Source: Candidatus Moraniibacteriota bacterium (GTDB lineage Bacteria; Patescibacteriota; Minisyncoccia; Moranbacterales; GWC2-37-73). From it: DNA of 64,000 bases. The number at the start of each line of letters is the position of its first letter. Position 1 is the stretch's first letter. Shown here one piece after another: positions 4,021 through 35,078 of the stretch. The stretch spans positions 32,421-96,420 of the forward strand of contig JAAXUC010000004.1 in the NCBI GenBank assembly GCA_013336225.1, written 5' to 3'. Below the pieces are notes generated by a model. It was not told the DNA's origin and searched no databases. It saw nothing but the letters and a program-made list of their open reading frames with translations. The position numbers and the translations under genes are program-made.

Positions 4021-4043
4021 AGCCCGTAAGGGCGATGCATTTC

Positions 4044-4126: not shown

Positions 4127-4139
4127 CATATGATATTTT

Positions 4140-4170
4140 AAAGACACCCTTTTGGGTGTCTTTAAAATTT
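4140..4170 (+). terminator. rho-independent terminator (aaagacaccc-tttt-gggtgtcttt + A/T tail)
   Basis: Perfect 10-bp stem immediately 3' of tRNA-Tyr. Confidence 0.6.
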
Positions 4171-4178
4171 TATTTGTA

Positions 4179-4400: not shown

Positions 4401-4494
4401 ACGTGATATTTCAGCTATGGACAAAAATCCAATAAAGCCTTATACTGCTTGATAGTTGCTGATTTCAGTATCTAATCCATATCGCTACCAAAAT

Positions 4495-4567
4495 GCCGTT
4501 GTAGCTCAGTTGGTAGAGCACATCCTTGGTAGGGATGAGGTCTGCGGTCCGATTCCGCACAACGGCT
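4495..4567 (+). tRNA. tRNA-Thr (anticodon GGU)
   Basis: Acceptor GCCGTTG/CAACGGC, anticodon stem CATCC/GGATG with loop TTGGTAG, T-stem TGCGG/CCGCA with atypical T-loop TCCGATT. Confidence 0.8.
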
Positions 4568-4686
4568 CAGGTTTGATAAATTAAAAGATTTTAAAATAAG
4601 TTTCTATTTTCATTGTTTTAAGCCAGAAACAAATGAACATATGAACTAATGACAATTGTATGGCAACAAAGACAAAGGAGAATTTA

Positions 4687-4824
4687 GTGAAACTTAAATG
4701 CAGTGAATGCAAAGAGATCAACTATTACACTTCAAGAAATAAGAAGAAGATCAAAGAAAAGCTTGAGCTCAACAAGTATTGCAAAAAATGTCGCAAGCAC
4801 ACTGAACATAAGGAAATGAAATAA
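4687..4824 (+). CDS. rpmG: 50S ribosomal protein L33
   Basis: Below the 60-aa ORF-track cutoff. [45 protein letters not shown] aligns with B. subtilis L33 (CTECGERNYISKKNK...KKYC). GTG start at 4687 sits 6 nt after AAGGAG; an in-frame ATG at 4660 would add 9 aa. Confidence 0.85.
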
Positions 4825-4832
4825 CCTTTAAA

Positions 4833-4858
4833 GGGGCGGGTTTTCCCCGCCCCTTTAT
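4833..4858 (+). terminator. rho-independent terminator (aaaggggcggg-tttt-cccgcccctttat)
   Basis: GC-rich 10-bp stem plus T-rich tail directly after the rpmG stop. Confidence 0.6.
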
Positions 4859-4862
4859 ATTT

Positions 4863-4933
4863 GCGGGATTCGTATAGTGGTAGTACGTCGGTCTCCAAAA
4901 CCGTTGGCGTAGGTTCGATTCCTACATCCCGTG
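4863..4933 (+). tRNA. tRNA-Trp (anticodon CCA)
   Basis: Acceptor GCGGGAT/ATCCCGT (G1-U72 wobble), anticodon loop CTCCAAA, T-arm GTAGG-TTCGATT-CCTAC. Confidence 0.8.
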
Positions 4934-5096
4934 CATGCAGCAATAAAAACAGATACTTAATTAAATTAGGTACCTGTTTTTATTTATTGTTAACATTCTT
5001 TTTTTGTATCAGTTTATTTTGATTATATTTTGTTTGGATAATATGCTAGGATGAATTTTGGGTGAATTATTCTAAGAAAATATCAAAATAAAAATA

Positions 5097-11452: not shown

Positions 11453-12082
11453 TTATGCAGTCATTTTGTTTGTGCGGCGTTTCCCGTACACTGCAATCCC
11501 AAGCAGGCCAACTGAAAACAGTGCCATGGTTCCTGGTTCAGGAACGGGTGCAACCGAAGTCATGTTTATGCCAATTTCGTTTAAACTGAAATCATTCCAG
11601 CAGAGATCTCCAGCCAGGACACTTACTTGAATCAGGCCATCCTTGAGATATTCTTCAAGTCCAGCTTGCTTGAGGTCAATGGTGAATATTTTGCTGGCAG
11701 GACTCATTTGAAACCAGGAAAAATTTCCCAAAAATAGAGTCTTGTCCAGGAGTTTCGTGTCTCCATCCATTGCTCCGGAAGAAATCACAATTCTTTCTGG
11801 CAAAAGATCTGCAGAAGAAATTGTGACTCCCAGGAGCGCAGACGTGATGCTTGAGCCTGGCAAAAATCCAAGAGCATCAGTTGTGGCTCCATTGGTTTGG
11901 TTTACGAAGTCAAAGTTAAAGACCGCGGACTGACCCTGCGATAGTGTTACACTTTGATTGCCATTTAAAAAAGCTTCCTGTTGAGTCATTGGCAGTGCGA
12001 ATGCCATCCCAGCTGTCATCAACATCATCAACATTACAATTAAAAAGTTTTTCATTAAAAATCTCCTTTTCGGTTGAACCAC
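11453..12082 (-). CDS. secreted protein with C-terminal PEP-CTERM sorting signal
   Basis: Signal peptide with basic n-region (KRRFLMKNFLIVMLMMLMTAGMAFA); C-terminus VPEPGTMALFSVGLLGIAVYGKRRTNKMTA = PEP motif + TM helix + basic cluster. Confidence 0.65.
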   Translation of the reverse strand: MVQPKRRFLMKNFLIVMLMMLMTAGMAFALPMTQQEAFLNGNQSVTLSQGQSAVFNFDFVNQTNGATTDALGFLPGSSITSALLGVTISSADLLPERIVISSGAMDGDTKLLDKTLFLGNFSWFQMSPASKIFTIDLKQAGLEEYLKDGLIQVSVLAGDLCWNDFSLNEIGINMTSVAPVPEPGTMALFSVGLLGIAVYGKRRTNKMTA

Positions 12083-14579: not shown

Positions 14580-14689
14580 AAATTCATAAAATGCGCTATT
14601 TAAATTTAAGAAGGGATTGAATGATGATGTGAATGTGGAAAATGAGATTTTGTGATATAATAAAAACATCAATTAAAAAAATTTTTATT

Positions 14690-15307
14690 ATGGATAAAAA
14701 ATCAAAAATATTGCTTTGGGTGATTGCTCTTTTGATTGTTGGCAGTGTTGGTGCAACTTATTGGCGCATCATGATTAAAAAAGATTACATCATTGAGTCT
14801 CAGATTGATTGTGATCCATATGAAAACAAATGTTTCGTGTGGGAGTGTGATCCTGAGTCGTCAGTGGAAGGAGAAGCTTGCACGGGCGACCCTGAAAGTG
14901 ACATTTGGTATTTTCAAGTGGCGAAAAGAAATGCAGCAAACATTTCGCTTTGTGATCCTGAAACTGATGAAAATTGTGATCCGTGGACTTGCGCTGAAGA
15001 TGAAAAGGATTGTAGTGAAATTTTTTGCGATGAGGCAAATATGGAAGAGCAATTTGCCGCATCTTGCAATGATCCTGCTCAATATGTGATTGACAATCCA
15101 ATTGAAGAAGAAGGCGATTGCGCTGAAGATGATGAAGAATGCTTGGCTATTGAAGAGGAGTCTGCCTGTGAGGAGGGTGATGAGGAATGCTTGGCAGCAG
15201 AGGAGGAGGCTGTCTGTGAAGAAGGTGACGAGGAATGTGTCAATGCTGAATCTGCCACAGATGAAGATGTCGCGGCTGATGTTGTTGATGAAGATATAGC
15301 TCAATAG
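14690..15307 (+). CDS. membrane-anchored, highly acidic Cys-rich repeat protein
   Basis: N-terminal TM helix ILLWVIALLIVGSVGATYW, then an ectodomain with 18 Cys and repeated E-rich units (EEECLAIEEESACEEGDEECLAAEEEAVCEEGDEEC). Start taken at Met20 of the track ORF. Confidence 0.5.
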   Translation: MDKKSKILLWVIALLIVGSVGATYWRIMIKKDYIIESQIDCDPYENKCFVWECDPESSVEGEACTGDPESDIWYFQVAKRNAANISLCDPETDENCDPWTCAEDEKDCSEIFCDEANMEEQFAASCNDPAQYVIDNPIEEEGDCAEDDEECLAIEEESACEEGDEECLAAEEEAVCEEGDEECVNAESATDEDVAADVVDEDIAQ

Positions 15308-15405: not shown

Positions 15406-15434
15406 TTGACAAGAACTGTTTTTAGGTGTATAAT
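15406..15434 (+). promoter_or_regulatory. sigma70-like promoter (TTGACA -17- TATAAT)
   Basis: Consensus hexamers with 17-nt spacer, 42 nt upstream of a strong SD (GGGAGGTG) and the TTG start of the 15476 gene. Confidence 0.6.
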
Positions 15435-15475: not shown

Positions 15476-16240
15476 TTGAAAAATGCACTAGTGGATGGAT
15501 TCAGAGCCTTCCTTGATATCAAGGAAGAAGAGGAGATCGTGTCAGCAGCAGTTGCAAAAAAAGCTTCTTTTTTGGCAGCTGGCAGAGCAGTGTTTGCTTT
15601 TACTGATTGGATCATTGCAGCTGGACTTGGCGCATTTGTTTTTTGGATGCAGTCAAAAAACTTTTCCTCTGTAAATGTTTGGCTGGCAACATTTTTGTAT
15701 GATCTTGTTGCCTCGGCTGCATTTTTCTTTTTGAGTGACATGACAAAGTGTGATTTCACATTTGGTCAATCATTCAGAAGAGTCGCTGACAGTCTTTCCG
15801 GAAATGGATTTTTTGGGAAAATTTTTGCTGGCATGCTCCTTTTGGGAGTATCAGCAAAGGCCATCATCTGGGAAGGTCCGGAAGTTATCTGCTTTCTTTT
15901 TCAAAAAGAATTGAAAAGTAGGCGTAACATCTGGCTGGCATTGATTGTCTTGTCGGCACTGCAGGGATTGTTTGGTGCTTGGCTCTATTCTACAGGCTAT
16001 GAATTATGGAGAGCATTTGCACCAAAGTTGGTTGATTCCCATCTTGTTTTAATGGGAATAGCAACGTTTGCCATTGTTGCAATCATTGTTGCGCTGGCAA
16101 AGAAGATTGTGAAATTAGTAACAAAAGCGATTCGTTTTTTCTTTGAATGTTCAAAAAAACAGCAGTTAATGATGGTCTTTCAATTGGCAGTATTTATATT
16201 TTGCACAATGCTGCTTTTACGGAAAATTATATTTACTTGA
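15476..16240 (+). CDS. hypothetical polytopic membrane protein
   Basis: TTG start after GGGAGGTG; 6-7 predicted TM helices; no motif recognised. Confidence 0.4.
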   Translation: MKNALVDGFRAFLDIKEEEEIVSAAVAKKASFLAAGRAVFAFTDWIIAAGLGAFVFWMQSKNFSSVNVWLATFLYDLVASAAFFFLSDMTKCDFTFGQSFRRVADSLSGNGFFGKIFAGMLLLGVSAKAIIWEGPEVICFLFQKELKSRRNIWLALIVLSALQGLFGAWLYSTGYELWRAFAPKLVDSHLVLMGIATFAIVAIIVALAKKIVKLVTKAIRFFFECSKKQQLMMVFQLAVFIFCTMLLLRKIIFT

Positions 16241-16332
16241 ATCGTATCAGGCGTGAATCTTATAAAGTAAGATTCACGCCTTTTTTCTTTTGCATTTTCA
16301 TCATCTTGCAAAAATAATAAAATTAGCCTAAT

Positions 16333-17706
16333 ATGAACATAATGAATATATTATTAGTTTCACTGGATCTTTCAGGCGCTGATTTGGCGCACCGCTTCAA
16401 AAAAGAAGGACATGACGTCCGTCTTTTTATTGAGGATAAAGATCAAAAAAATAATTACGACGGAATCGTTGCCAAAGTTTCTGATTGGAAAAATGAGCTT
16501 GCTTGGGTTGGAAAAAATGGACTCATCGTTTTTGACAGTTGTGGATATGGAAAAGAGCAAGATGATCTTCGAAGAGAAGGTTTTTCCGTGGTTGGTGGCT
16601 GCGAATTGGGTGATAAGCTTGAACATGACAGGCAATATGGTCAAAAAATATTTTCTGTTTGTGGAATACCTATCGTTGACTCTCAAAGCTTCACAAATAT
16701 GCAGGAAGCCATTGAATTTGTTCGTGGCAATAAAGGACCTTGGGTCATAAAACAAAATGGACATGCTGATAAGATGTTCAATTATGTGGGAAGCCTTGAG
16801 GACGGAAGAGATGTCATTGACGTGCTTAATAATTATTGTGAATATGAAAAAGATGAATGTGCAGTCATCGACCTTCAAAAGAAAATAGAAGGCATCGAAA
16901 TCGGCGTGGCTAGATATTTCAATGGAAATGATTGGGTTGGACCAATTGAGATAAATATTGAACATAAAGATTTGTTTGCTGGGGGCGTGGGTCCAAAAAC
17001 TTTCGAAATGGGGACTTTGATGTGGTTTGATGATGATGAAAACAATAAACTTTTTCTAATGACCCTGGCAAAGCTTAAGGATTATTTAAAAAAAATAAAT
17101 TTCATAGGAGATGTTGACATTAATTGTATTGTAAATGATCAAGAGGTATATCCGCTTGAAGTTACAACTCGTTTTGGATGGCCTTCAACTCACCTGCACT
17201 GCGAATTGATTGAATCTCCAATGAGTGATTTCCTGAAAGCGGTGGCTGATGGAAAACAATATGACTTGAAATATAAAAAAGAGTTTGGCATTGTGGTGCT
17301 TGTGGCAACCCCGCCATTTCCATATCAGCTGCAGTTGAAAAAATATTCAGCTCAAGACGAGAAGATTTATTTTGGTGCTGGGATTTTACAAGATGATTTT
17401 GATCACATTCATTTGGAGGAAATTTCAAAAAACAATGATGGAGAATATTATATTTCAGGCGATTCTGGTTTCATTTTGCATGTGACAAGCACTGGGGGCA
17501 CTGTTGAGAAAGCAAGAGCAAATGGAATTGAAATTATAGATAAAATAATAATACCAAAAAAATTCTATCGTAATGATATCGGTCTTAAATTTGAGCAGAC
17601 AGATGGTGATAAATTGAGGCAATGGGGGTGGATATCAAAAATGAATGCAAAAAAGCAAAATCGCATCATAACTTTTTTTAAATCTTTTCATGAGAAGCGA
17701 AAATAA
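16333..17706 (+). CDS. ATP-grasp enzyme of the phosphoribosylamine-glycine ligase (PurD) family, divergent
   Basis: Collinear with E. coli PurD: GPWVIKQNGHADKMF ~ APIVIKADGLAAGKG; DLFAGGVGPKTFEMG ~ GDKDTGPNTGGMG; YPLEVTTRFGWP ~ VIEFNCRFGDPE; C-terminal domain GFILHVTSTGGTVEKAR ~ RVLCVTALGHTVAEAQ. The conserved N->T and D->W substitutions suggest altered chemistry. Confidence 0.7.
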   Translation: MNIMNILLVSLDLSGADLAHRFKKEGHDVRLFIEDKDQKNNYDGIVAKVSDWKNELAWVGKNGLIVFDSCGYGKEQDDLRREGFSVVGGCELGDKLEHDRQYGQKIFSVCGIPIVDSQSFTNMQEAIEFVRGNKGPWVIKQNGHADKMFNYVGSLEDGRDVIDVLNNYCEYEKDECAVIDLQKKIEGIEIGVARYFNGNDWVGPIEINIEHKDLFAGGVGPKTFEMGTLMWFDDDENNKLFLMTLAKLKDYLKKINFIGDVDINCIVNDQEVYPLEVTTRFGWPSTHLHCELIESPMSDFLKAVADGKQYDLKYKKEFGIVVLVATPPFPYQLQLKKYSAQDEKIYFGAGILQDDFDHIHLEEISKNNDGEYYISGDSGFILHVTSTGGTVEKARANGIEIIDKIIIPKKFYRNDIGLKFEQTDGDKLRQWGWISKMNAKKQNRIITFFKSFHEKRK

Positions 17707-18244
17707 ACCTGAAGAAATTTTCGAATTGACCACGGTTGTTGAAAATTGTTTCAAGCAGGAATTTTTGGACGACATATTATTGCTTGAAAAAAAATGTTTT
17801 CCGTTGGAAATGCAATATGAGCGCAATGTTGCAATTGAATACTATAAAGGGGCACTGAAAAATAGTGACAATATTAATGTTTTCTTAAAAGAAGGCGCTG
17901 AAACAATCGGATATGTTTTGGCGGTTTTTCATGATAATGGATTCGATGAAATTCATGAATATGACAAGGAGTTTAAAAAACAAAAAGATTTTTTCTACAT
18001 TGAAACAATTCAAGTTTTGCCTGAAAAAGGTGGCAGAGGTGGTGCAAAAAAGTTGCTTATGGCTGCTTGCAAAGAAGCTCAAAAAAGAGGAATCAACAAA
18101 TTTTCAATACATGCTCGAAAAACCAATGGTCTCAGTGAAACAGTCAAAAAGCTTTTTGAAGGAAAAACAATCACAGTGCGAGAAATTGAAAGTTGGAATC
18201 CAGCAAATGGAGAGCCTTATGAATATATTGAGTGGAGATGCTAG
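17690..18244 (+). CDS. GNAT-family N-acetyltransferase
   Basis: GNAT motif A IQVLPEKGGRGGAKKLLMAACKEAQKRG (Q/RxxGxG/A); overlaps the upstream gene by 17 nt. Confidence 0.6.
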   Translation: MRSENKPEEIFELTTVVENCFKQEFLDDILLLEKKCFPLEMQYERNVAIEYYKGALKNSDNINVFLKEGAETIGYVLAVFHDNGFDEIHEYDKEFKKQKDFFYIETIQVLPEKGGRGGAKKLLMAACKEAQKRGINKFSIHARKTNGLSETVKKLFEGKTITVREIESWNPANGEPYEYIEWRC

Positions 18245-18449
18245 GGATTATCATTTGAAAATGCGTTTTTTACTGTGTGACAATGTTTCATCTTCTTGTT
18301 GATCTGCAAAAATTGTTATTTCTTGTGCATGAAAATGGAATTGTTTTCCTTTCTCAAAAGTTTGTTTTAGTGTATAATTTGATTAGTAAATGTTTTTTTA
18401 TTTGAACTTAATTGATGATGATAAATTTGAATTAATAGCAGCTAATATT

Positions 18450-19001
18450 ATGAAAAAGACAAAAGAAGGGAGAAGTGTTTTTTCATGGATGAATCCTTGT
18501 TTGGAGGTTAGATCAATATCTAAGTATGGCAATAATGGAAAAGGAATTTTTACATTAAAAGAAATAAAAAAAGGTGAGGAGTTGGCTGTCTTTGGTGGTT
18601 ATATTGTAGCAGTTAAAGATCTGATTGATTTACCAGAGAAATACAGAGATCTCGGATTTCAGATATCTGATAAATTTTCAATAACTAGTAAGAATATAAA
18701 TGAAGACTCTGATAATTTTAATCATAGTTGTGATCCTAATGCTGGGATATGTGGACAAATATTTTTAGTTTCAATGAGGGATATTAAAAAAGGAGAGGAA
18801 GTTGTTTTTGATTATGCTATGGTTTTAAGTAAAAGTACTGGTGCTGAAAAATATGAAATTAAATGTTTATGTGGATCAGTAAAATGTAGAGGTAAGATAA
18901 CTGAGAATGATTGGAAGATGCCAGAATTACAAAAAAAATACAATGGATACTTCCAACATTTCTTGCAGGAAAAAATTAATAAAATAAATACAAAAAAATG
19001 A
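18450..19001 (+). CDS. SET-domain protein (putative protein lysine methyltransferase) with post-SET Cys cluster
   Basis: SET signature FNHSCDPNA, EEVVFDY, and post-SET CLCGSVKCRG. Start taken at internal ATG 18450; stop overlaps the HK start (ATGA). Confidence 0.8.
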   Translation: MKKTKEGRSVFSWMNPCLEVRSISKYGNNGKGIFTLKEIKKGEELAVFGGYIVAVKDLIDLPEKYRDLGFQISDKFSITSKNINEDSDNFNHSCDPNAGICGQIFLVSMRDIKKGEEVVFDYAMVLSKSTGAEKYEIKCLCGSVKCRGKITENDWKMPELQKKYNGYFQHFLQEKINKINTKK

Positions 19002-20719
19002 TTTGTCCAAGCTTCGCAGATCCAAAGTTTTTGATCATTGCCACTGATGTTCCAGCTTTGCTTTATTATTCACACATTCCAGCAATCATAATATCATTGT
19101 TGATTGGTTTCTTTGTTTTTTTGAAGGACAGATCGTCTTTGGCTGGTAGACTTTTATTGTTTATTTCATTGAGTTTCTCCCTGTGGACTTTCTTTAGCTT
19201 GATAACATGGACAAATAATAATAGTGAGTTAATTATGCTTGTCTGGTCTTTTTTTGGCGCCCTATATGTATTGCTTTGTATATTATCCTTATACTTCGTG
19301 TATGTATTTATAGATAAGAGAGACGTTTCATTTAAGATAAAAATTATTCTGGGTCTCATATTTTTACCTGCAATTATTTTAGTTTCAACTGCTTTTAATA
19401 TTTTTAATTTCAACTTAACACTCTGTGGCGTTACAAATGAAGGTGTTTATTATACCAATTATTATTACGGAGTTGGCTTTCTGATGTTTCTATGGATTCT
19501 CTTCTTGTTGATTGCTCGTTATAGAAAGGCTGAGAAAGAAATGAAAAAACAAATCATTCTGCTTGGGTTTGGTATTGAATTTTTTCTACTTTCTTTTTTT
19601 GCCAGCGGATATATTGCAAGTCTCTTGACTGAGAATTCATATGATCTTGAATTCTATGGTCTTTTTGGGATGACTTTTTTTATGGCAGTGTTGGCTTTCT
19701 TGATTGTCAAATATAAAGCTTTTGAAATCAAGCTCATTGGCGCTCAAGCATTGGTGGTGTCTCTGATAATTTTGGTTGGCTCTCAATTTTTCTTTGCAAA
19801 AAATCAAACCAGCATCATTTTGACAGGCGTGACAATGGCACTTTCACTCGGATTTGGATACTATTTGATTCGCTCTGTTAAGCATGAAGTTGAGCGCAAA
19901 GAAGAATTGCAGCTTATGGCGGACAAGTTGGCGCAGGCCAATGATGCGCTGCGGAAATTGGACAATGCCAAGACGGAATTCATTTCGATTGCTTCTCATC
20001 AACTCAGAACTCCGATCACAGCCATCAAGGGTTTTGCTTCACTTTTGCTTGAGGGTGCATATGGAGAACTTTCTGAAGGTGTGCATGGAGCCTTGGAAAA
20101 AGTGTATTCTTCCAGTGAACGTTTGGTTTCCCTTATTGAAGATCTGCTCAATGTTTCGCGCATTGAATCTGGACGTATGGTTTTTGCTTTTGAAAAAGCA
20201 ACAGTTGAAAAATTGATCAAAGAGTTGTATGACAACTTCATTTTGATTGCCAAGACCAAGAAATTCTATCTTGATTTGAAGCTGCCGGAAACTCCACTGC
20301 CTGAAGTTATGATGGACTATTCCAAAATTCGCGAATTGGTTTCCAATTTCATTGACAATGCGCTCAAGTATACAGAAAAAGGTGGCGTGACTGTCAAAGC
20401 TGAGCTCAGGGATGAAGGTGTGGTGATTGATGAAAGTGGTTTTGTGATTGAGGGCAAGAAATCTGAATTTGGCAAAGTGGTGCGGGTCACAGTTTCCGAC
20501 ACCGGAATCGGAATTCCGCGCGAAGAAATTCCATATCTTTTCAAAAAGTTTTCACGCGGCAAAGATGTGTCGCGCCTTCATGTTGGTGGAACCGGCCTTG
20601 GGCTCTATGTGGGCAAGGCCATCGCTGAAAACCATCATGGCGCAGTCTGGATCGAATCCGAAGGTGCCGACAAGGGAAGTCGCTTCATCATTGAAATCCC
20701 AGTGGAACACGTCGGGTAG
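18998..20719 (+). CDS. sensor histidine kinase with N-terminal 7TM sensing domain
   Basis: ~280-aa polytopic N-terminus; H-box SIASHQLRTPITAIKGF; N/G1/G2 boxes (NALKYT, DTGIGIP, GGTGLGLYV). Confidence 0.85.
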   Translation: MICPSFADPKFLIIATDVPALLYYSHIPAIIISLLIGFFVFLKDRSSLAGRLLLFISLSFSLWTFFSLITWTNNNSELIMLVWSFFGALYVLLCILSLYFVYVFIDKRDVSFKIKIILGLIFLPAIILVSTAFNIFNFNLTLCGVTNEGVYYTNYYYGVGFLMFLWILFLLIARYRKAEKEMKKQIILLGFGIEFFLLSFFASGYIASLLTENSYDLEFYGLFGMTFFMAVLAFLIVKYKAFEIKLIGAQALVVSLIILVGSQFFFAKNQTSIILTGVTMALSLGFGYYLIRSVKHEVERKEELQLMADKLAQANDALRKLDNAKTEFISIASHQLRTPITAIKGFASLLLEGAYGELSEGVHGALEKVYSSSERLVSLIEDLLNVSRIESGRMVFAFEKATVEKLIKELYDNFILIAKTKKFYLDLKLPETPLPEVMMDYSKIRELVSNFIDNALKYTEKGGVTVKAELRDEGVVIDESGFVIEGKKSEFGKVVRVTVSDTGIGIPREEIPYLFKKFSRGKDVSRLHVGGTGLGLYVGKAIAENHHGAVWIESEGADKGSRFIIEIPVEHVG

Positions 20720-20743
20720 ACTTGCGAAATTAAGAATTAAAAC

Positions 20744-20768
20744 AAAAACAGCTTCTTTAGCTGTTTTT
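20744..20768 (+). terminator. rho-independent terminator (aaaacagcttc-ttta-gctgttttt)
   Basis: Follows the HK stop. Confidence 0.55.
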
Positions 20769-20770
20769 GT

Positions 20771-20799
20771 TTGCAAAAGGCTGAAAATTTGCTATTATA
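20771..20799 (+). promoter_or_regulatory. candidate promoter (TTGCAA -17- TATTAT) for proS
   Basis: Hexamers at 20771-20776 and 20794-20799. Confidence 0.45.
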
Positions 20800-25678: not shown

Positions 25679-26707
25679 ATGCTTATTGAATCAAAAATTA
25701 TTGGTATAAATATTAAAAAGCAAAGGCTTTTGAATAAGATGTCACAAGTTGATGTTGGAAATCTTTTAAGTACTACAAAATCTTATATATGTAGCTTGGA
25801 GCGTGGTAATAGGAACCCTTCTTTGAAAACTTTAAAAAAAATAGCACTTATCTTCAATGTACCCGTAGAAATTCTTTTGAGGGGTAATGATATAGCTGAT
25901 TCAAAATATCAAAAGATAAGGGATGATAAATTTCAGCAATTTGAGAAGAAGATAAAAAATTGGAATATTACTTCACAGAAAAAATGGTGCAATTTTTTCA
26001 TCGATGAAGAAAGTATGTTTTTCAATAAAAATAGAATTAATCAGATAAAGACTATAGTGAAAAGATATGCTGATAATAAAAACTTATCAGTTATAGATTC
26101 GTCATGTGGAACTGGAAGACTTACGGAATTACTTGCAAAAGATGGCTTTAAAAAAATATATGGAATTGATGCCAATCCATATGTTGTAGAGATAGCAAGA
26201 GAGCAAGCAATACAAAAAGCATTAATGATAAACTATGATATATCTATTCCGCCAAGTTTTGAAAAAAAAGTATTTGATGTGGTTTTTAACATAGGAACAT
26301 CGATAGGGTATTTGCAAAGTGAGGAGGATAATTTTGAGAATATCAGAAGAATAAGTTGTTTAGTCAGTAGGGGTGGAAAAATAATAATTGAGGCAGTTAA
26401 TCCTATTGGGATATTGCGTAATTTTAGTTCAAGCGAAACACTTAAATTGGATGGAAAGAAGCGATCATATCAACGTTTTTTTGATGTAAGGAGTTCAACA
26501 AGTATTGAAAATGTTATTGATACTTATGATAATAAAAAACAAATTGAATATTTTAGCAGTATTCGATTATTTTTTCCCCACGAATTAATATCTATTTTTT
26601 TGAATAGTGGGTTTATTTTAGTTGATCTGCTTGATAATAATTTAACCAGGAAAAATACCGTTAATTCACCTAGGCTATGGTATATTTTTCAGAAAAAAAA
26701 TGTTTAA
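25679..26707 (+). CDS. HTH-XRE (Cro/C1-type) DNA-binding domain fused to a class I SAM-dependent methyltransferase domain
   Basis: N-terminus QVDVGNLLSTTKSYICSLERGNRNPSLKTLKKIALIFNVPVEILL = XRE HTH; C-terminal motif I VIDSSCGTGRLT, post-I GIDANP, motif II FDVVFN. Confidence 0.7.
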   Translation: MLIESKIIGINIKKQRLLNKMSQVDVGNLLSTTKSYICSLERGNRNPSLKTLKKIALIFNVPVEILLRGNDIADSKYQKIRDDKFQQFEKKIKNWNITSQKKWCNFFIDEESMFFNKNRINQIKTIVKRYADNKNLSVIDSSCGTGRLTELLAKDGFKKIYGIDANPYVVEIAREQAIQKALMINYDISIPPSFEKKVFDVVFNIGTSIGYLQSEEDNFENIRRISCLVSRGGKIIIEAVNPIGILRNFSSSETLKLDGKKRSYQRFFDVRSSTSIENVIDTYDNKKQIEYFSSIRLFFPHELISIFLNSGFILVDLLDNNLTRKNTVNSPRLWYIFQKKNV

Positions 26708-27797
26708 TTTTATTGGTAAAATGCAATTTCATCAGAATAAAATAAATTCTCTCCTTGAGGATAGAATTGAAAATTCACTAACTACTGTCTTTATTGATCT
26801 GGTTAGCGGTGTTTGTAATCATAAGTGTGTGTTTTGTGATGGAAATTTTAATCCAATAAAAAAGCTAATTTTTTCCAAGAGTAAGTTGCTTGAAATAGCT
26901 AATGATCTTGGTGATATGAATGTTGATTCCGTGATTATGGTTGGCGAGGGTGGAGAATCATTATTGAATCCCAATTTTTGTTTTTTTTCAAAGAAATTGT
27001 TGGATAAAAAAATTCATCTTGGAATGTATACGAACGGTGGCATGTTGAATAAGAAAAATCTCGGTGTTATTTCAAGGTTTGATTTTATTAGAATTTCTTT
27101 GGACTCTGGATCATCGATAACTCATCAGCAAGTGCATGGGTATGAGGATAGAGATGATTTTAATAAGATATTTGAATCAATTGAATATTTAAGAAAAAGA
27201 AGCAAAATACAAATAGGATCATCATTCTTGCTATTACCACAGAACGTAGATGATTTATATGAGGCTGCAAAGAGATTAAAGGAGGCTGGTGCGAATTATA
27301 TAGAGGTTAGGCCAGCATATTTAAGGGATTACGGCTTTGATTTAAAGGCTTTTAAATCGATAAAGGATCGTTTCTTATACCAATTGGATAAAATGGACGT
27401 CCTAAATGATGATAGCTTTAAGGTGATTATTAATAATCAGTTAAAGGAGATAATTAAAAATAAAAAAACAATTCGTGGTGATGTTACAAGGTTGAAAAGA
27501 TCAAGAAATTGTTTAACTTGTAGGTTGAGATTAGTTGTGAGTCCAACGGGATGTTATATTTGTCCACCAAATAGAAGTAAAGAAGATTTTCGCATAGGTG
27601 ATATTTGGAATAATCCTTTACGTAGCATTTGGAATAATAGGGAACATTTGGATAAGATTAATAAAAAATGTGATTTAAAATGTCCTTACCATAAGCAAAA
27701 TAATTTTTTAATTAAATTAAAGAAAAATAATTTAATTTTTGATGATAAGTGCTTGCTGCCAGCTGGCAAATTAATTACTCAGAAAAATTTTCTATAA
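26700..27797 (+). CDS. radical SAM enzyme with C-terminal SPASM/twitch-like Cys-rich domain
   Basis: CX3CX2C (VSGVCNHKCVFCDG); C-terminal CLTCRLRL...GCYICPP...GDIWNNPLRSIWNN...CDLKCPYH resembles SPASM auxiliary-cluster motifs; overlaps the upstream gene by 8 nt. Confidence 0.8.
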   Translation: MFNFIGKMQFHQNKINSLLEDRIENSLTTVFIDLVSGVCNHKCVFCDGNFNPIKKLIFSKSKLLEIANDLGDMNVDSVIMVGEGGESLLNPNFCFFSKKLLDKKIHLGMYTNGGMLNKKNLGVISRFDFIRISLDSGSSITHQQVHGYEDRDDFNKIFESIEYLRKRSKIQIGSSFLLLPQNVDDLYEAAKRLKEAGANYIEVRPAYLRDYGFDLKAFKSIKDRFLYQLDKMDVLNDDSFKVIINNQLKEIIKNKKTIRGDVTRLKRSRNCLTCRLRLVVSPTGCYICPPNRSKEDFRIGDIWNNPLRSIWNNREHLDKINKKCDLKCPYHKQNNFLIKLKKNNLIFDDKCLLPAGKLITQKNFL

Positions 27798-27801
27798 AAA
27801 T

Positions 27802-28899
27802 ATGATAAAACCTATAAACTTTACAAAATATTATAAAGAAATTTTATCAGAATTGATGCTAGCATTTAGCGAGTTTATTTTAAGTGGGCAATATATCGGA
27901 GGTAAATTGGTGGAAAAATTTGAAGATAAAGTTAAAAAATATTTGGGTGCTAAACATGCAATAGGATGTAAGAGCGGAACACATGCTCTTCAGCTTGCGC
28001 TTTTAGCTGCTGGTGTTGAGAAAGGTGATGAAGTTATTACGGTTGCTAATACATATTACGCAACGGTATATGCAATTACTGCTGTAGGAGCAACGCCAAT
28101 TTTTTGTGATATTTTACCAGAAAATGGGCAAATTGATCATAATAAAATTGAAGCTAAAATTACTAAAAAAACAAAGGTTATTTTGCCAGTTCATTTGTAT
28201 GGGATACCTGTTAATTTGGGGGAAATTAGAAAAATTTGCAAAAAATATAAGTTAATATTAATTGAGGATTGTTCTCATGCATTTGGAACAAGGTTAAATG
28301 GTGAATATATAGGAAGTGATTCAGATTTTGGATGCTTTAGTATGTATCCAACAAAAAATCTCGGTGCTTTTGGTGATGCTGGATTTATAACAACAAAAAA
28401 TAAGAAATATGAAAGCAAGATTCGCGAATTGATTTATTTGACAGATGCTAAGCGGGTAAAATTTAATCCAAAAGCTATTCATGCTATGCTGGATCCTCTT
28501 CAGGCAGCCTTGCTTTTGGTAATGCTAGATAAGATGGATCAAGCACGCAAAGATAGAATTGAGAGAGCGGATGAATATAGGAAAAATCTAGAGGAATATA
28601 TCAGGATAAGTAAGGTTGGAAGTGATAGTGTTGTGAATCCTCACATGTTCCCAATTTTTATTAAAAATAGGAACAAGTTGATAAAATTTTTGGCAGATTC
28701 CTCTGTGCATGTGCAAGTTCATTATCCAACCAATCTGCATTGTCTGTCACAGTTTGGATCATACGCCAAAGGGTATCTCCCAGAAACGGAGAGGCACAAT
28801 AGAGAAGAGGTCAGTCTTTCTGTTCATCCATCTGTTTCAATATCTGAAGTTAAGAAAATATGTAAATTAATTAAGCAGTATGTCGAAATTAACAAATAG
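27802..28899 (+). CDS. DegT/DnrJ/EryC1/StrS-family PLP-dependent (sugar) aminotransferase
   Basis: Family N-terminus GGKLVEKFEDKVKKYLGAKHAIGCKSGTHALQLAL; PLP-Lys motif FSMYPTKNLGAFGDAGFI. Confidence 0.8.
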   Translation: MIKPINFTKYYKEILSELMLAFSEFILSGQYIGGKLVEKFEDKVKKYLGAKHAIGCKSGTHALQLALLAAGVEKGDEVITVANTYYATVYAITAVGATPIFCDILPENGQIDHNKIEAKITKKTKVILPVHLYGIPVNLGEIRKICKKYKLILIEDCSHAFGTRLNGEYIGSDSDFGCFSMYPTKNLGAFGDAGFITTKNKKYESKIRELIYLTDAKRVKFNPKAIHAMLDPLQAALLLVMLDKMDQARKDRIERADEYRKNLEEYIRISKVGSDSVVNPHMFPIFIKNRNKLIKFLADSSVHVQVHYPTNLHCLSQFGSYAKGYLPETERHNREEVSLSVHPSVSISEVKKICKLIKQYVEINK

Positions 28900-29884
28900 A
28901 AAGAAAATTGTTGTTTTGGTTCTTGGATTTAGGGCGCTTTCTTTTATTAAGAAGGGTTATTTAGCGTCAATTATTAAGGCTGCCGATAAAATAAAAAATG
29001 CAAAAGTTGATATTGTTTATCTTGATAATTATTCAAGAGATGGATCAGTACCATACATCATGAAAAATTATAAAAATATCGATCTATTATCTGCGACTGA
29101 AAATTATTTTTACTGTAAGGGTGTAAATGTCGGTTTGCAATTTTCATATCAAAAATATAGACCAGATTACTTTATGCTTGTAGATGCTGATAATCCATGT
29201 GAAGAGAGCGCTTATGGTAAGTTGATTGATTTTGCAAATAAAAATGCAAAAGTGGGAATTGTTCAGCCGCTAGTTAAGGGTCTAAGTGATTCAAATAGAG
29301 TATATTCATGTGGGCACGTATATGAAAATGGTATTTCATGTAGGCCATTAAGAGAAATCCCAAAAAACAAAAAAATATTATTAAATCTTCAAAGTTGTTC
29401 AATATCATCAACACTTGTCAAAACAAAGGTTTTTGAAAAATGTGGTTTGCTTGATCCTATTTTCAAGATTTATTATGAAAGTAGCGACTTATCATTCAGA
29501 GCAAGAAAAGCGGGCTTCTTGTGTGCTTGCCATGTTGAGGCTGTGTGTTTTAATGAGGGTGCAAAAGTTTCAAAAACTGATAATTTTCATGAGGGTTATT
29601 TTAGAAATAGAAACAATTTAATTTTCTGGAAAAAACATGATAATGAAAAATATGAAATTTTAAAAAAGATATATCAAGAAAGGCATAAGCAATTAAATGT
29701 AAAATTGGCTAATTTGAAATATGTCACAGACATGGAAGAGGAGAGTGAGCGAAGGGGGATTGAGGACGGCATAAAAATTACTAAAAAAATGGTTGCAGGT
29801 ATCAAGAATGAAGAGAGGATAGATAAATTTGATAAAACTGATGCTATTGTGATTCAGGAAGCATGCAAAAATAATGAAAAATAA
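28880..29884 (+). CDS. family 2 glycosyltransferase
   Basis: GT2 motifs DIVYLDNYSRDGS, DxD (LVDADN), and YESSDLSFRARKAGF (ED-DLS-R-R-AG). Confidence 0.65.
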   Translation: MSKLTNRKKIVVLVLGFRALSFIKKGYLASIIKAADKIKNAKVDIVYLDNYSRDGSVPYIMKNYKNIDLLSATENYFYCKGVNVGLQFSYQKYRPDYFMLVDADNPCEESAYGKLIDFANKNAKVGIVQPLVKGLSDSNRVYSCGHVYENGISCRPLREIPKNKKILLNLQSCSISSTLVKTKVFEKCGLLDPIFKIYYESSDLSFRARKAGFLCACHVEAVCFNEGAKVSKTDNFHEGYFRNRNNLIFWKKHDNEKYEILKKIYQERHKQLNVKLANLKYVTDMEEESERRGIEDGIKITKKMVAGIKNEERIDKFDKTDAIVIQEACKNNEK

Positions 29885-32150
29885 CATGTCAAAATCATTT
29901 CATCTTTTCTTATTGAAATTTTTCTATTCCATGTTATGCATTAAGGATTATTTCATGATGGGTTTTGAAATCAAAAAGCTTAAGAAGATAGCCAGCAAAT
30001 CAGTAGACACATTGCAATTTAATGATAAATTGAATGAAAATATCGTTGTTGGTGTGGACGAAAAAGAAGGATATTATATTGATTCAAAAAAGCCATCTTA
30101 TTACAAGAAGCACTTTAATGATTTTTTTCATAATGATTTGTATGGTAAATATAGATCAGATGAAAATATTATTTTAAGTACTGGTGCTCTTAATCAGGAT
30201 GAATTTTGTCTTCCGCGTTCGTTGAAATTTGCCATAAGCTATGCTCTTACGAGAAATTGGTATGGTTATTCTTGCAGCTTAGGTAGGGAATCAGCTCGCT
30301 TGGCTATAGCTGATCTGGAAAACCATAAAATTAATAGCAATATCTACAATGAAAATAATGTAGCATTGATACAGGGTGTTACGGCCGGATTATTTCACTT
30401 ATTATCATTTTTGAAAGAGAGAGAGGAAGATGGTAACTTCGGCATTTTGACGCATTATCCAACTTACGTGCCTTTTGCAGCAACTTGCGAAAAAATCGCA
30501 CCCACAAAAATAATAAATTTTTTTGGTGATAAAAAATTTAGCATCGAAGCGTTTAAGCGAAATATAGATAAAACAACAAAGGTGATTTTATTGCTTGGAG
30601 ATTTTAATCCATTAGGAAAACTTATGGATGTTTCTTTTGTTAATGAATTGATTGATATTTGTGATGAGAAGTCGATATATCTTATTATTGATGAGGCTGG
30701 TTCAAAATATCCGGAAAATAATTGGAATAATTTGAAAAATAGTGATTTCTTAATCAGGATGGATAGCTTATCTAAAAAAGTTTCAGTTCCTGGTATGAAA
30801 TTGGGATATTTTATTGCAAATGAGGAGATAATCTCTGAATTTTATGAGCGAGCATCAACAACCTATGGTGGCCCATCATCTTTTTTTTACATCCTACAAG
30901 AACTTGATGCAAGGTTCGATCTTTTTTTCCGCAAGGGTTTGCTTAAGATTGGATCAGGAGAGTTGGCATTATTTGATAAAAATTACAATCTAGGATTATT
31001 TTTTTTGAATATTCTCTATGGTCAATATATTAAAAATAAACATTTTTTTGAGTTAAAAATAAAACAGCATCGCAGTATCGTTATTGATAAGCTTATCAGT
31101 CATCATCCTCAATTGGTGAAAAAAATAATCATGCCAGAAACTGGTATTAATATTTTTTTGCAATTAGATGTCGATTACGGCAGTTATGAATTTTTCAGAA
31201 AATTGATAGTTGAAAAAAGGACAGCAGTTTTTCCGGGACTTTGTTCTGCTACAGATAAAGAATGCTGGATAAGAATAACATGTGGTGTTGATAAAAAAAC
31301 TTTGCAAACTGGTTTGGATAATTTGGTTGATTTTCTTAAGACTGAGTGGATCAAGAAACAAATACAAAAAGAGCCATTTTTTGAAAAATTACTTCTTGAT
31401 TTTGGTCAGTATGGGAGTTATGGTTACTTGTCATTTTTTGAACACATTTATGATGTTCAAAAAAATGGAATGAAAATATTGGATATTTTTGAGCTGAAAA
31501 CTAGAAGAAAGTTGGATCGTGATTTACTTAGGGAGGTGATATTTTGTCATGATGCTGGGAAAGTTGTGAGTGTGATAGTGTTTCGAATTATGAGAATTTT
31601 GCAACTTCAAAAAAAATATGGAAAAATCCCATTTTCAGTTTTTTCTAAATTGAGAGACGAGGATTTACTGTTTTTGCGAAAGGAAATAGTGGATTGTTTT
31701 GTTTTTACAAAAGAATATTTTTACGAAATGTTTCCATTTTTGCATGATTATTCTGAATTAATGAATTTAGATAGTGATAAATATCTTAAAGATACCGTCT
31801 TTACTGAGAAGATGCTTCAGCTTGCTCTGGATAAATATCCAAATTATGAGAAAAAAATAGAAGAAATGAAATTTATAATATTGAACAATTCCGCAAAAAT
31901 TAATATCAATAATTTAATGATTGGATATAATCCGTATATTTTCATTTTGGATTTTGCAGATAAAATTGCTGATTATAATCTTCCAGAAGAACCAACTCTG
32001 GCAAAAATAGATGAACTTTTGAGAAAAAAGAAAAAATATGTAATTAAACGATATTGTCATAATAATCGATCCATGGAAGCTATTGTCCATTGCGAGTTTA
32101 GTCATCTGTATGAGCTAATTAGGGAATCAAGAGTTTTTCATAAATGTTAA
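29874..32150 (+). CDS. fusion protein: class I/II PLP aminotransferase domain + C-terminal putative HD-type phosphohydrolase domain
   Basis: Aminotransferase PLP-Lys motif SLSKKVSVPGMKLGYFIAN (cf. SFSKxxxxxGxRxGY); C-terminal H...HDAGK (FEHIYD...VIFCHDAGKV) resembles HD-domain motifs I and II. Confidence 0.55.
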   Translation: MKNNMSKSFHLFLLKFFYSMLCIKDYFMMGFEIKKLKKIASKSVDTLQFNDKLNENIVVGVDEKEGYYIDSKKPSYYKKHFNDFFHNDLYGKYRSDENIILSTGALNQDEFCLPRSLKFAISYALTRNWYGYSCSLGRESARLAIADLENHKINSNIYNENNVALIQGVTAGLFHLLSFLKEREEDGNFGILTHYPTYVPFAATCEKIAPTKIINFFGDKKFSIEAFKRNIDKTTKVILLLGDFNPLGKLMDVSFVNELIDICDEKSIYLIIDEAGSKYPENNWNNLKNSDFLIRMDSLSKKVSVPGMKLGYFIANEEIISEFYERASTTYGGPSSFFYILQELDARFDLFFRKGLLKIGSGELALFDKNYNLGLFFLNILYGQYIKNKHFFELKIKQHRSIVIDKLISHHPQLVKKIIMPETGINIFLQLDVDYGSYEFFRKLIVEKRTAVFPGLCSATDKECWIRITCGVDKKTLQTGLDNLVDFLKTEWIKKQIQKEPFFEKLLLDFGQYGSYGYLSFFEHIYDVQKNGMKILDIFELKTRRKLDRDLLREVIFCHDAGKVVSVIVFRIMRILQLQKKYGKIPFSVFSKLRDEDLLFLRKEIVDCFVFTKEYFYEMFPFLHDYSELMNLDSDKYLKDTVFTEKMLQLALDKYPNYEKKIEEMKFIILNNSAKININNLMIGYNPYIFILDFADKIADYNLPEEPTLAKIDELLRKKKKYVIKRYCHNNRSMEAIVHCEFSHLYELIRESRVFHKC

Positions 32151-32166
32151 TATAATTTTAAAAAGT

Positions 32167-32748
32167 ATGATCAAGATGGAATATTTTATTAAAAAAATTG
32201 TTGATATATTAAGCAAAAAAGGCTTGGAAGATAAGGAAATTTCCAATATCATGCTTACTTCCAATGAAACACTTATTAATGAGATAGCTGATGTCATTTT
32301 TGATTTTATGAATCGTGGAAAAAAAATAATATACAATGTGCAAGTTGATTATTCTAAAAATGTGGAGGAGATGGTTGAGATTACAATGCATGAATGGGCT
32401 AATGAAGACATCACCTCGGAACATTTCCTTAATATCAGGGGTAAATCCGCAGAAGTGAGTGTTGAGCTTATACATTTCAATCGAAGCATCCTAAGCGATG
32501 ATGCACTTCTTGAGATGAGTGCTATGGGTTATCGTGCGGCTAATATGCAGGAATTCTTGGCATTTGGTGCGAAATATCCTGATCTGCAACGCAAATTTCC
32601 AATTGTGGGATTGGGGTCAGTTTGGCACAGTGAAGACAGTCATCTTGTTGCATATATGAGCTGGGGAGCTTCTGGCCGTTACCTCCATTTGTGGCATCTT
32701 GATCTTGTTTGGGGTGACGGTTGTCGTTTTGCTGCCGTTAAAGAATAA
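32167..32748 (+). CDS. hypothetical protein (193 aa), last gene of the AT-rich operon
   Basis: No motif recognised; distinctive HLWHLDLVWGDGC C-terminus. Confidence 0.35.
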   Translation: MIKMEYFIKKIVDILSKKGLEDKEISNIMLTSNETLINEIADVIFDFMNRGKKIIYNVQVDYSKNVEEMVEITMHEWANEDITSEHFLNIRGKSAEVSVELIHFNRSILSDDALLEMSAMGYRAANMQEFLAFGAKYPDLQRKFPIVGLGSVWHSEDSHLVAYMSWGASGRYLHLWHLDLVWGDGCRFAAVKE

Positions 32749-34277: not shown

Positions 34278-35078
34278 ATGGCTAAAATAATGCTAGTTGA
34301 AGACGATCCGATGATCGCCGAAATATATCAAAAAAAATTCGAATTGGCAGGATTTGAGGTTGTTAATGCTGTGACTGGAAAAGAGGTTTTGAAATATGCG
34401 CTTGAGCAGAAATTCGACCTCATTTTGTTGGATTTGGTTTTGCCTGAGATGAGCGGGATGGATGTGCTTAAAGAGCTGCGCAGCAATGTTGCATATGACA
34501 GTGAATTAAAGGTGATAGTGCTTAGCAATTTGGATAAAACTGAAAATGAAAAAAAGGCCAAGGATTTGGGGGCAAATGATTTTATTGGAAAAACTCAATA
34601 CAGTCCGTCCGAACTTGCAATTGAGGTGCAACGACGCTTGAATGAATATGACGAACAAAAGAAAAATAAGGAACGCTTGAGTAATGGAGGAGGTGCTGGC
34701 ATCGTGTGCGCTGGCAAGAAAATTCTTTTCATTGAAGATGAGGAAATTTTCCTGGAAATGTTTGGTGGGAAATTGGAAAACGAGGGATATTGCGTGGAAT
34801 ATGCCAAAAATGGTGTTTGGGGTAGCAAGCTTGCAACTGAAAAAGATTTTGATTTGATAATCACTGATATGGTCATGCCGGCTATGGGCGGCGAAGAAAT
34901 TGTCAGACGGCTCAAGCTGGATGATAGAACAAAAAACTTGCCGATTATTGTGCTTTCCGCCTCGCTGATCGAAGAAGATATTCAGCCGGTGCGAGAATTG
35001 GGAGTGACTGATTTTTTTGAAAAAACACATTTAGTCCCAAGTGATCTTGCCCGGCGAGTCGGAGAAATATTGAATTAA
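34278..35078 (+). CDS. response regulator with two tandem receiver (REC) domains and no output domain
   Basis: REC1: MLVEDDPMIAEIY...DLILLDLVLPEMSGMDVLKELR; REC2: KILFIEDEEIFLEMF...DLIITDMVMPAMGGEEIVRRLK; conserved Asp/Lys positions present. Confidence 0.75.
   Translation: MAKIMLVEDDPMIAEIYQKKFELAGFEVVNAVTGKEVLKYALEQKFDLILLDLVLPEMSGMDVLKELRSNVAYDSELKVIVLSNLDKTENEKKAKDLGANDFIGKTQYSPSELAIEVQRRLNEYDEQKKNKERLSNGGGAGIVCAGKKILFIEDEEIFLEMFGGKLENEGYCVEYAKNGVWGSKLATEKDFDLIITDMVMPAMGGEEIVRRLKLDDRTKNLPIIVLSASLIEEDIQPVRELGVTDFFEKTHLVPSDLARRVGEILN

Follow-up and report, generated by a model that had tools for sequence, protein, structure and literature searches.

The enzyme closest to the subject of this work is PurD, the phosphoribosylamine-glycine ligase of purine synthesis, an ATP-grasp enzyme in which a lysine binds ATP, one glutamate binds the ribose, another binds Mg and an arginine stabilises the acyl-phosphate (PMC2978367, PMC8880213). 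The Asp of its RFGDPE signature is the proposed general base and a ligand of the amines of both glycine and phosphoribosylamine (PRA), and the Glu is a ligand of glycine (PMC2978367). Precedents exist for operons that combine S-adenosylmethionine decarboxylase (AdoMetDC), an ATP-grasp ligase of the glutathionylspermidine synthetase (Gss) type and a small membrane protein (PMC11237479), and both polyamine N-acetyltransferases and Gss homologs are encoded by phages (PMC9992855). We analysed a stretch of 64,000 nucleotides (nt), here called the window, from Candidatus Moraniibacteriota bacterium (contig JAAXUC010000004.1, positions 32,421 to 96,420). It is low in guanine plus cytosine (GC) and strongly strand-biased, with genes for ribosomal proteins, tRNA synthetases and cell division, and it carries adjacent genes for a PurD-like ligase, a GNAT acetyltransferase, a SET-domain methyltransferase and a histidine kinase with a seven-transmembrane (7TM) sensor region. 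Our best reading is that this locus is one instance of a modular, often reshuffled gene neighbourhood around a PurD-derived ATP-grasp ligase. What is new is an undescribed module built around a neofunctionalised PurD paralog; its kind, the ATP-grasp amide-ligase module, is known. No earlier description of the family or the module was found in the searchable literature, the amidoligase survey of Iyer et al. 2009 lying outside the search.

The four open reading frames (ORFs) named in the initial annotation were found by direct reading of the sequence, and the Pfam assignments agree with the domains it had given them:

16333..17706, plus strand: PurD-derived ATP-grasp amide ligase, probable start 16342, judged not to be a glycinamide ribonucleotide (GAR) synthetase
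17690..18244, plus strand: GNAT N-acetyltransferase, Pfam Acetyltransf_1 31.5 bits, an optional module member
18390..19001, plus strand: SET-domain methyltransferase, probable start 18450, Pfam SET 52.9 bits
18998..20719, plus strand: sensor histidine kinase with an N-terminal 7TM region (HisKA_7TM, HisKA, HATPase_c)

The first ORF gave 31.9 bits with Pfam GARS_A and 27.9 bits with GARS_C, below the gathering score of 34.8, and 102.1 bits with the purD equivalog TIGR00877, below its cutoff of 288. Identity to solved PurDs is about 20-23%. The AlphaFold (AF2) model of the protein (predicted local distance difference test score, pLDDT, 87.4) has the four-domain PurD fold; its top 15 Foldseek matches in the PDB are all PurD (E 3e-28 to 1e-22, template-modelling score 0.67-0.73), with biotin carboxylase, PurK and PylC far behind. 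The resemblance to PurD over three domains that had been noticed initially was thus borne out in the model, as was the motif EVTTRFGWP in the sequence, where RFGDPE reads RFGWPS.

A site table was compiled from 120 close homologs, 150 representatives of 50%-identity clusters and two solved PurDs, all aligned to the family profile; it covers 270 family members, and residue roles were taken from human and Aquifex PurD (PMC2978367, PMC8880213). The ATP-grasp residues K140 (the ATP-binding Lys), E189 (the ribose-binding Glu), E210, K212, E276 (the Mg-binding Glu) and R280 (the acyl-phosphate-stabilising Arg) are invariant or near-invariant in the 270 sequences, and H211 of the E210-H211-K212 triad is retained in essentially all members together with the C-domain YRxDIG motif (R413, D415). 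It was found that the position of Asp283 is Trp in the window ligase and W, F or Y (also C) across the family, and that of Glu285 is Ser in the window ligase and A, S or T across the family. The PRA-binding GGGREHA loop (Arg13/Glu14) is replaced by S-L-D-L-S-G-A-D in the window protein (Arg to S14, Glu to G15), and the PRA-binding Arg of the C-domain (human Arg385; Arg380 here) by Phe, with F or Y across the family. The GLAAGK B-loop has gone, reading KQNGHADKMFNYVG in the window ligase and being Gly-rich nowhere in the family, and throughout the family Thr stands in for the Asn of the ExN metal motif (N278 to T). In all, the contacts that PurD makes with PRA and with the amino group of glycine are replaced family-wide, which argues that the protein, judged from its residues, is not a GAR synthetase. 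We conclude that the ligase family is very probably a neofunctionalised paralog of PurD at the core of the module.

It is hardly conceivable that the window ORF is a genuine but divergent PurD serving purine synthesis. PurD is its closest family by sequence and fold, several sources annotate its homologs as phosphoribosylamine--glycine ligase, and one paper reconstructs purine synthesis in the Candidate Phyla Radiation (CPR) from all CPR genomes pooled. However, besides a score far under the equivalog cutoff, the family as a whole has replaced the Asp, the glycine-binding Glu, the PRA-loop Arg and Glu, the C-domain Arg and the B-loop, no pur gene occurs in any annotated neighbourhood, and family members lie in phage late-gene blocks or are fused to portal and MuF domains or to a SET domain, as described below. 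That the ligase might be the only purD of a full purine pathway is very unlikely because of this family-wide loss of substrate contacts, the phage members and the SET fusion. The initial annotation had placed the locus outside purine synthesis, which the equivalog score and the lost contacts uphold, and had seen no other purine gene nearby; none was found among the annotated proteins of the window, whose ORFs were scanned in part only, and none among the Pfam-annotated neighbours in related loci.

The family has also gained a near-invariant Asp-x-Asn (D262, N264), at a place occupied by a Mg ligand in PurT and by Gly in PurD. Judging by the residues that are kept, the enzyme would still form an acyl-phosphate and an amide bond; the acceptor pocket appears to have lost its basic, phosphate-binding character and become aromatic and acidic, as would suit a cationic aliphatic amine. 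In addition, inteins (LAGLIDADG, Hint) interrupt the catalytic A-domain of P0134, P0140 and about eight other long representatives, near positions ~222 and ~276 of the profile, the second of these falling on the PLExTARFG motif; a single LAGLIDADG intein is present in P0134, and P0140 has Hint_2, Intein_splicing and LAGLIDADG elements. Inteins typically sit in conserved functional sites of important proteins, and their presence in the catalytic domain of these homologs therefore argues for an active, important enzyme and against a dead one. More than 1,100 homologs were found by a word-indexed search, the closest being mostly from Moranbacteria, and they are named 'hypothetical', 'GARS C domain-containing' or 'phosphoribosylamine--glycine ligase' in the source records. 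An exhaustive profile search delimited the family as 651 clusters at E<1e-30.

We then compared the neighbourhood in 74 loci, one genome per species, with all ORFs clustered without prior labels. A complete PurD-like ORF was present in 65 of the 74, making up 29 ligase clusters at 65% identity, and partners were counted within 5 kb of the PurD-like gene over these 65 loci and 29 clusters. At least one recurrent partner was found in 63 of the 65 loci and in all 29 clusters, in 53 distinct arrangements. The partners were as follows:

orthologous 7TM kinase: 38/65 loci, 19/29 clusters
membrane protein family fam4/f21: 34/65 loci, 15/29 clusters
Cys-rich acidic protein with a transmembrane anchor: 28/65 loci, 16/29 clusters
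EamA transporter: 25/65 loci, 13/29 clusters
N-methyltransferase (SET or fam33): 15/65 loci, 12/29 clusters
GNAT: 13/65 loci, 8/29 clusters
AdoMetDC-like protein: 12/65 loci, 9/29 clusters

The membrane family that follows the kinase in frequency joins two homologous sets, fam4 and f21 (hhalign probability 98.9%). With a 4-kb cutoff the kinase was found in 36 of the 58 loci whose flanks could be used, downstream and co-directional in 27 and upstream and divergent in 8. The initial annotation had seen an amide-forming ligase coupled to acetyl- and methyltransferases and a membrane sensor, and such a link appears well supported by the neighbourhood data and by the residues kept in the ligase. 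Its details have to be amended, since GNAT (13/65 loci) and SET (11/65) are optional and the kinase, fam4/f21 and EamA are more constant.

The juxtaposition of the SET and kinase genes, whose occurrence in relatives had been chosen beforehand as a test capable of refuting the initial reading, is conserved: the two genes adjoin directly in L003, L029, L054, L074 and L083, run divergently in L048 and L096, and have a single small ORF between them in L100 and L101. The small ORFs (L100:6659-7030 and L101:6583-7008) encode short paralogs of the acidic protein of the window, acid224, and in L100 the ORF overlaps the kinase gene by 4 nt. These acid-type paralogs between SET and kinase hint at an extracytoplasmic co-sensor for the 7TM kinase.

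A reciprocal scan anchored on SET was made in another collection, that of the metagenomes. Here the closest SET homologs lay beside a PurD-like gene in L083, L091, L097, L098 and L101 and beside the kinase in L083, L096, L100, L101 and L130, with EamA, GNAT, f20, f21 and the acidic protein also nearby; a more distant SET subfamily stands alone. Furthermore, protein P0157 is a fusion of a PurD-like ligase with a SET domain, in 57% GC contigs the PurD-like, tandem double-SET and f21 genes mutually overlap, and operons with overlapping PurD-like, SET and f21 genes are found in unrelated bacteria of 57-62% GC. The SET-anchored recovery, the fusion and the overlapping operons therefore rule out pure synteny for the ligase-SET link. 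The double-SET protein (L063:11305-12399, L091:5398-6492; 57% GC bacterium) has 364 aa and two complete SET modules that both carry the family-specific C-terminal tail, and its gene overlaps the PurD-like gene upstream and the f21 gene downstream.

For the locus as a whole, it could be supposed that ligase, GNAT, SET and kinase are functionally unrelated and kept together by mere synteny in a small, strand-biased genome. Housekeeping genes downstream (AspRS, MFS, ScpA/B, PBP) are syntenic too, promoter- and terminator-like signals partition the region, GNAT and SET each occur in fewer than 20% of loci, and the response regulator lies 13.5 kb away in the window. Nevertheless, 63 of 65 loci keep a partner despite the 53 arrangements, the kinase is still adjacent after inversion, SET as an anchor recovers the neighbourhood in another collection, overlapping PurD-like/SET/f21 operons exist in unrelated bacteria, and the fusion largely refutes synteny for SET. 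We regard mere synteny as highly improbable, and consider it very probable that the ORF encodes an active amide ligase other than PurD that is functionally linked to N-modifying enzymes. The kinase-ligase association is strong but contextual, and we incline to the view that this link is also functional.

The other proteins of the locus were characterised similarly. The Acetyltransf_1 score of the GNAT is above the cutoff of 20.7, and acetyl-CoA motif A (R/Q-x-x-G-x-G/A) is seen in EKGGRGGAKKLL; the only NCBIfam relative was a weak RimI match, no informative PDB relative was found, and no specific subfamily was assigned. In the SET protein, which exceeds a Pfam cutoff of 22.4, the residues N111, H112 and C114 (NHSCxPN), Y142 (the Tyr of DYAM), C159, C161 and C166 are invariant in the family alignment. 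It carries the zinc-site cysteines of the post-SET CxCx4C motif and a family-specific C-terminal tail, and in the PDB it matches the MLL1 SET domain best (E=6e-19). The kinase scores 36.1 bits with HisKA_7TM, 68.1 with HisKA and 84.1 with HATPase_c, all over the cutoffs, and has the H-box SHQLRTP. About 13.5 kb from it in the window, beyond ProRS, IleRS, a 31% GC island and IspH, lies a regulator with two receiver (REC) domains (34278-35078; Pfam Response_reg in two stretches; 338 bits with the RR2 hidden Markov model). Orthologs of this regulator stand directly 3' of the kinase in L028, L031, L035-L037, L043 and L083, and the two-REC protein is probably the kinase's cognate regulator. The AF2 model of the window's fam4 protein, memb254, is confident (pLDDT 91.6), and no structural relative of it was found. 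The uncharacterised partners f20 and f24 had no PDB homolog by profile, and a representative of each had no Pfam match. A known anti-phage defence system was considered and dropped, as none of the PADLOC defence-system models matched any of eight module proteins; the idea that the ligase N-domain mimics a receiver domain was likewise dropped as unsupported.

The nature of the substrate is suggested by genes found with the module in relatives. AdoMetDC-like genes adjoin the ligase gene, and the Ser/His/Cys pyruvoyl triad is kept in 15 of 16; they comprise one canonical type and divergent types. In many lineages, CPR among them, SpeD homologs act as ornithine or arginine decarboxylases (PMC10407285). 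In L029 and L030 the gene immediately upstream of the ligase encodes a spermidine synthase, including a SpeD-SpeE fusion. In four loci (L007:14249-14956, L032:11373-12080, L043:11373-12080, L045:6822-7532) the SET slot immediately upstream of the kinase is filled by fam33, a full-length homolog of guanidinoacetate N-methyltransferase (GAMT; 1xcj, E=1.7e-48) that had no Pfam match, comes from CPR-type genomes and is always beside the 7TM kinase. In addition, the SET subfamily of the module supplies the last, overlapping gene of three polyamine operons:

L143:4045-6519: equivalog-level SpeE, saccharopine-dehydrogenase-like protein, SET
L107:2624-6516: AdoMetDC, BpsA-type branched-polyamine synthase, Sacchrp_dh-like protein, SET
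L124:3620-7799: AdoMetDC, SpeE-like protein, Sacchrp_dh-like protein, SET, MFS

This position suggests that the SET enzyme ending these operons has a polyamine-related role; our literature search turned up no paper that connects SET domains with polyamines. The initial annotation had left the choice between a small molecule and a protein, and because of the AdoMetDC-like and spermidine synthase neighbours it can be narrowed towards a polyamine-type amine. We hold the assignment of a polyamine-type small molecule as the substrate to be tentative, close to evenly balanced and slightly on the doubtful side.

Genomic contexts were also retrieved for five distant representatives of the family. Four of them (L082, L163, L164, L165) are on phage-like contigs of 36-40 kb and 33-38% GC that carry portal, terminase, DNA polymerase A, primase and Dam genes. 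On these contigs the gene for the ligase is at the edge of the late block or within it, beside portal or terminase or at the block's end, and in L165 a GNAT gene is also in the structural block. The fifth (L081) is in a 66% GC bacterium, where the ligase is followed by a methyltransferase of the MTS/PrmA type. Protein P0228 (1236 aa) is a fusion of portal, PurD-like ligase and Mu-F, and the portal/MuF fusion architecture has been read as that of a head-packaged effector delivered into the host (PMC5512222). When the window ligase was compared with a phage collection by tblastn, only ordinary PurD-level matches of 20-27% identity were obtained, and viral contigs scanned with the family alignment and with the phage member P0236 gave no match.

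These phage members bear on the possibility that the locus is a protein-modification module, in which the ligase would attach an amino acid, or a small acid, to side chains or termini of proteins in the manner of RimK or tubulin-tyrosine ligase, SET would methylate lysines and GNAT would acetylate lysines or N-termini of the same target; phages would deliver the ligase with their DNA to act on host proteins. The late-gene position and the portal-PurD-like-MuF fusion match head-packaged effectors, and the PurD-like-SET fusion P0157, the PrmA-type gene that follows the ligase in L081 and RimI as the only, weakly matching, named relative of the GNAT point the same way. The SET protein has every hallmark of a lysine methyltransferase, with MLL1 as its closest solved relative. 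On the other hand, the recurrent partners are small-molecule enzymes and transporters (EamA at 25/65 loci, AdoMetDC-like protein, spermidine synthase, GAMT homolog), and the SET subfamily is found inside polyamine biosynthesis operons. The ligase keeps the closed N/A/C-domain pocket of PurD, many of whose loop residues are invariant, which is what one would expect if the substrate were small and fixed; no recurring candidate target protein was found in the neighbourhood, and the acidic protein is predicted from its N-terminal anchor to be extracytoplasmic. Among the alternatives to the polyamine reading this one ranks first, but it seems somewhat unlikely that proteins are what the module modifies.

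The arrangement of the locus itself differs in three details from that first proposed. The following further elements were found around the four genes and, in one case, between them; the two promoter sites are consensus matches only:

14633..15307, plus strand: acid224, recurrent module member with an N-terminal transmembrane anchor, a Cys-rich region and a highly acidic tail
15406..15434, plus strand: sigma-70-like promoter site TTGACA-17-TATAAT upstream of memb254, 12/12 consensus match
15476..16240, plus strand: memb254, all-helical membrane protein of 254 aa, unclassified family fam4 (homologous to f21)
16249..16281, plus strand: intrinsic-terminator-like hairpin (15-bp stem and T-run) between memb254 and the PurD-like gene
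18351..18378, plus strand: promoter-like site TTCTCA-16-TATAAT in the GNAT-SET gap, 10/12 consensus match
20740..20772, no strand assigned: palindromic hairpin after the kinase, flagged on the minus strand, stem symmetric
34278..35078, plus strand: response regulator, probably cognate, with two receiver domains and no output domain

The acid224 protein matched no Pfam family in the Pfam scan. Both overlaps that had been reported were read directly in the sequence. The stop codon TAA of the PurD-like gene (17704-17706) lies beyond the GNAT ATG (17690), an overlap of 17 nt, and the TGA of SET (18999-19001) shares the sequence ATGA with the start of the kinase gene (18998). The 17-nt overlap arises from the C-terminal tail of the window ligase (residues 435-457), which is non-conserved and of low model confidence. 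The GNAT and SET genes are separated by 145 nt, or by 205 nt with M21 (nt 18450) as the start of SET, which the family alignment favours; for the PurD-like protein the family alignment and the NCBI model (P0001, 454 aa) place the start at M4 (nt 16342). Because of this gap and the promoter-like site in it, the single overlapping gene string of the initial annotation is in fact two overlapping pairs, PurD-like/GNAT and SET/kinase. With the consensus promoter before memb254, the terminator-like hairpin after it and the promoter-like site in the GNAT-SET gap, the region looks like at least three transcription units. The memb254 gene, bracketed by a perfect promoter consensus and a terminator-like hairpin, looks independently and strongly expressed.

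Elsewhere in the window, a secreted protein with a C-terminal PEP-CTERM sorting motif (Pfam E=8.5e-7) is encoded at 11453-12082 on the minus strand, in a CPR genome. Four tRNA genes are clustered at 3835-4934 (Thr-TGT, Tyr-GTA, Thr-GGT, Trp-CCA), and a lone tRNA-Lys-TTT gene is at 57464-57537. The island at 25679-32748 has 31% GC as against 36-40%, and encodes an HTH-methyltransferase, a radical SAM protein, a DegT aminotransferase, a GT2 glycosyltransferase and a 758-aa protein with an aminotransferase domain; it is probably acquired sugar-modification cargo.

We propose the following scheme for a module centred on the PurD-derived ligase. The ligase would convert a carboxylate and ATP into an acyl-phosphate, which an amine would then attack to give an amide, the new acceptor being most likely a cationic aliphatic primary amine of the polyamine or agmatine type. 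Nitrogens of the substrate or product would be N-acetylated by the GNAT and N-methylated by SET, or in other genomes by the GAMT homolog. The small helical membrane protein, or the EamA transporter in relatives, would carry the compound across the membrane, and the 7TM kinase with its receiver-only regulator would sense the compound or regulate the module. In its most far-reaching form, which we think is clearly unlikely, the scheme would describe a new modified-polyamine or cationic-amine pathway, in which the PurD-derived ligase acylates and SET methylates the amine, the new helical membrane family or EamA moves the product across the membrane, the 7TM kinase reads it as a signal or an envelope-charge cue in CPR, and phages package the ligase on portal/MuF to manipulate the same chemistry on entry. 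If true, a SET methyltransferase would here, for the first time, have a small molecule as its substrate.

Several points weigh against the proposed scheme. Polyamine genes flank only 12 of 65 ligase loci and 5 of 75 SET loci, and none was found in the 64-kb window. All characterised SET enzymes methylate protein lysines (PMC1282579), and the window SET resembles a standard lysine methyltransferase in its family alignment and PDB match. The phage portal/MuF fusions would fit the paradigm of injected effectors, which are usually aimed at macromolecules (PMC5512222). The shift of the acceptor pocket is read from alignment mapping, not from coordinates or docking, and the change from ExN to ExT may weaken metal binding. 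The promoter- and terminator-like signals divide the window's module into at least three transcription units. Finally, housekeeping genes (AspRS, ScpA/B) are also syntenic lineage-wide, and this could inflate the kinase association.

The practical consequence concerns annotation, as the label or score of phosphoribosylamine-glycine ligase, or the name 'GARS C-domain-containing', is attached to hundreds to thousands of CPR proteins and can lead to false calls of purine synthesis in metabolic reconstructions. CPR organisms are thought to depend on their hosts for nucleotides. The ligase is also a clean, naturally occurring example of an enzyme of core purine synthesis adapted to a new amide ligation, and the pattern of its substitutions can be read. 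Potentially much more novel is a SET enzyme tied to polyamine metabolism: owing to the polyamine operons and the ligase fusion, this SET subfamily is a testable candidate for a non-protein SET substrate. To our knowledge, CPR bacteria have very few signalling systems, and a kinase tied to an amine-modifying module offers a testable route to how CPR episymbionts sense or remodel their surface or polyamine pool. A PurD-type ligase fused to portal and MuF would add a new enzyme class to the virion-delivered effectors.

When compared with known systems, the ligase shares with PurD (GAR synthetase, EC 6.3.4.13) the N-B-A-C four-domain architecture and fold and the acyl-phosphate residues, i.e. Lys, Glu, the Glu/Asp-His-Lys triad, Mg-Glu, the catalytic Arg and the C-domain YRxDIG. 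It differs in that PurD has the contacts to PRA and the glycine amine, the B-loop and ExN instead of ExT, whereas the ligase family stands without purine-gene context and has phage members and fusions to SET or to portal/MuF. The window SET is like the lysine methyltransferases of the MLL1/KMT2A type in its NHSCxPN pseudoknot, catalytic Tyr and four Zn cysteines; unlike them it forms a separate protein of ~180 aa, whose conserved C-terminal helix (ITENDWKxPELQKKYxGYFQxYLQEKI) is unique to it, and in the module it is translationally coupled to a histidine kinase, a PurD-like ligase or polyamine-synthesis genes. The fam33 proteins, which are not encoded in the window, are full-length homologs of GAMT/Rmt2, and their bacterial/CPR context beside the kinase and the PurD-like ligase is new. 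BltD/Blt and SpeG-type pairs, in which a GNAT and a transporter (MFS or EamA) share an amine-handling locus, offer an analogy only, as the window GNAT has no detectable specific similarity to SpeG or BltD. P0228 and the phage members in late structural blocks resemble the MuF/portal-fused phage 'polyvalent proteins', although the survey of these proteins has ATP-grasp domains only as RNA ligases and no PurD-type ligase among the effector domains (PMC5512222), and the window copy is chromosomal. The operon logic is the same as that of the Gss-type ligases in AdoMetDC and DUF350 operons (Li et al. 2019, as cited in PMC11237479), which likewise join a pyruvoyl decarboxylase/aminopropyl pathway, an ATP-grasp amide ligase and a small multi-transmembrane protein. 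Like the PurD-like family, Gss-type ligases occur in both bacteria and phages (PMC9992855), and like PurD, Gss activates the carboxylate of glycine, which it couples to the amine of a polyamine. The window ligase belongs to a different ATP-grasp family, being of the PurD type with only GARS_A and GARS_C and no GSP_synth in the Pfam scan. In place of DUF350 the module has the membrane family fam4/f21, and it adds methyltransferases of the SET or GAMT-like type and a 7TM kinase.

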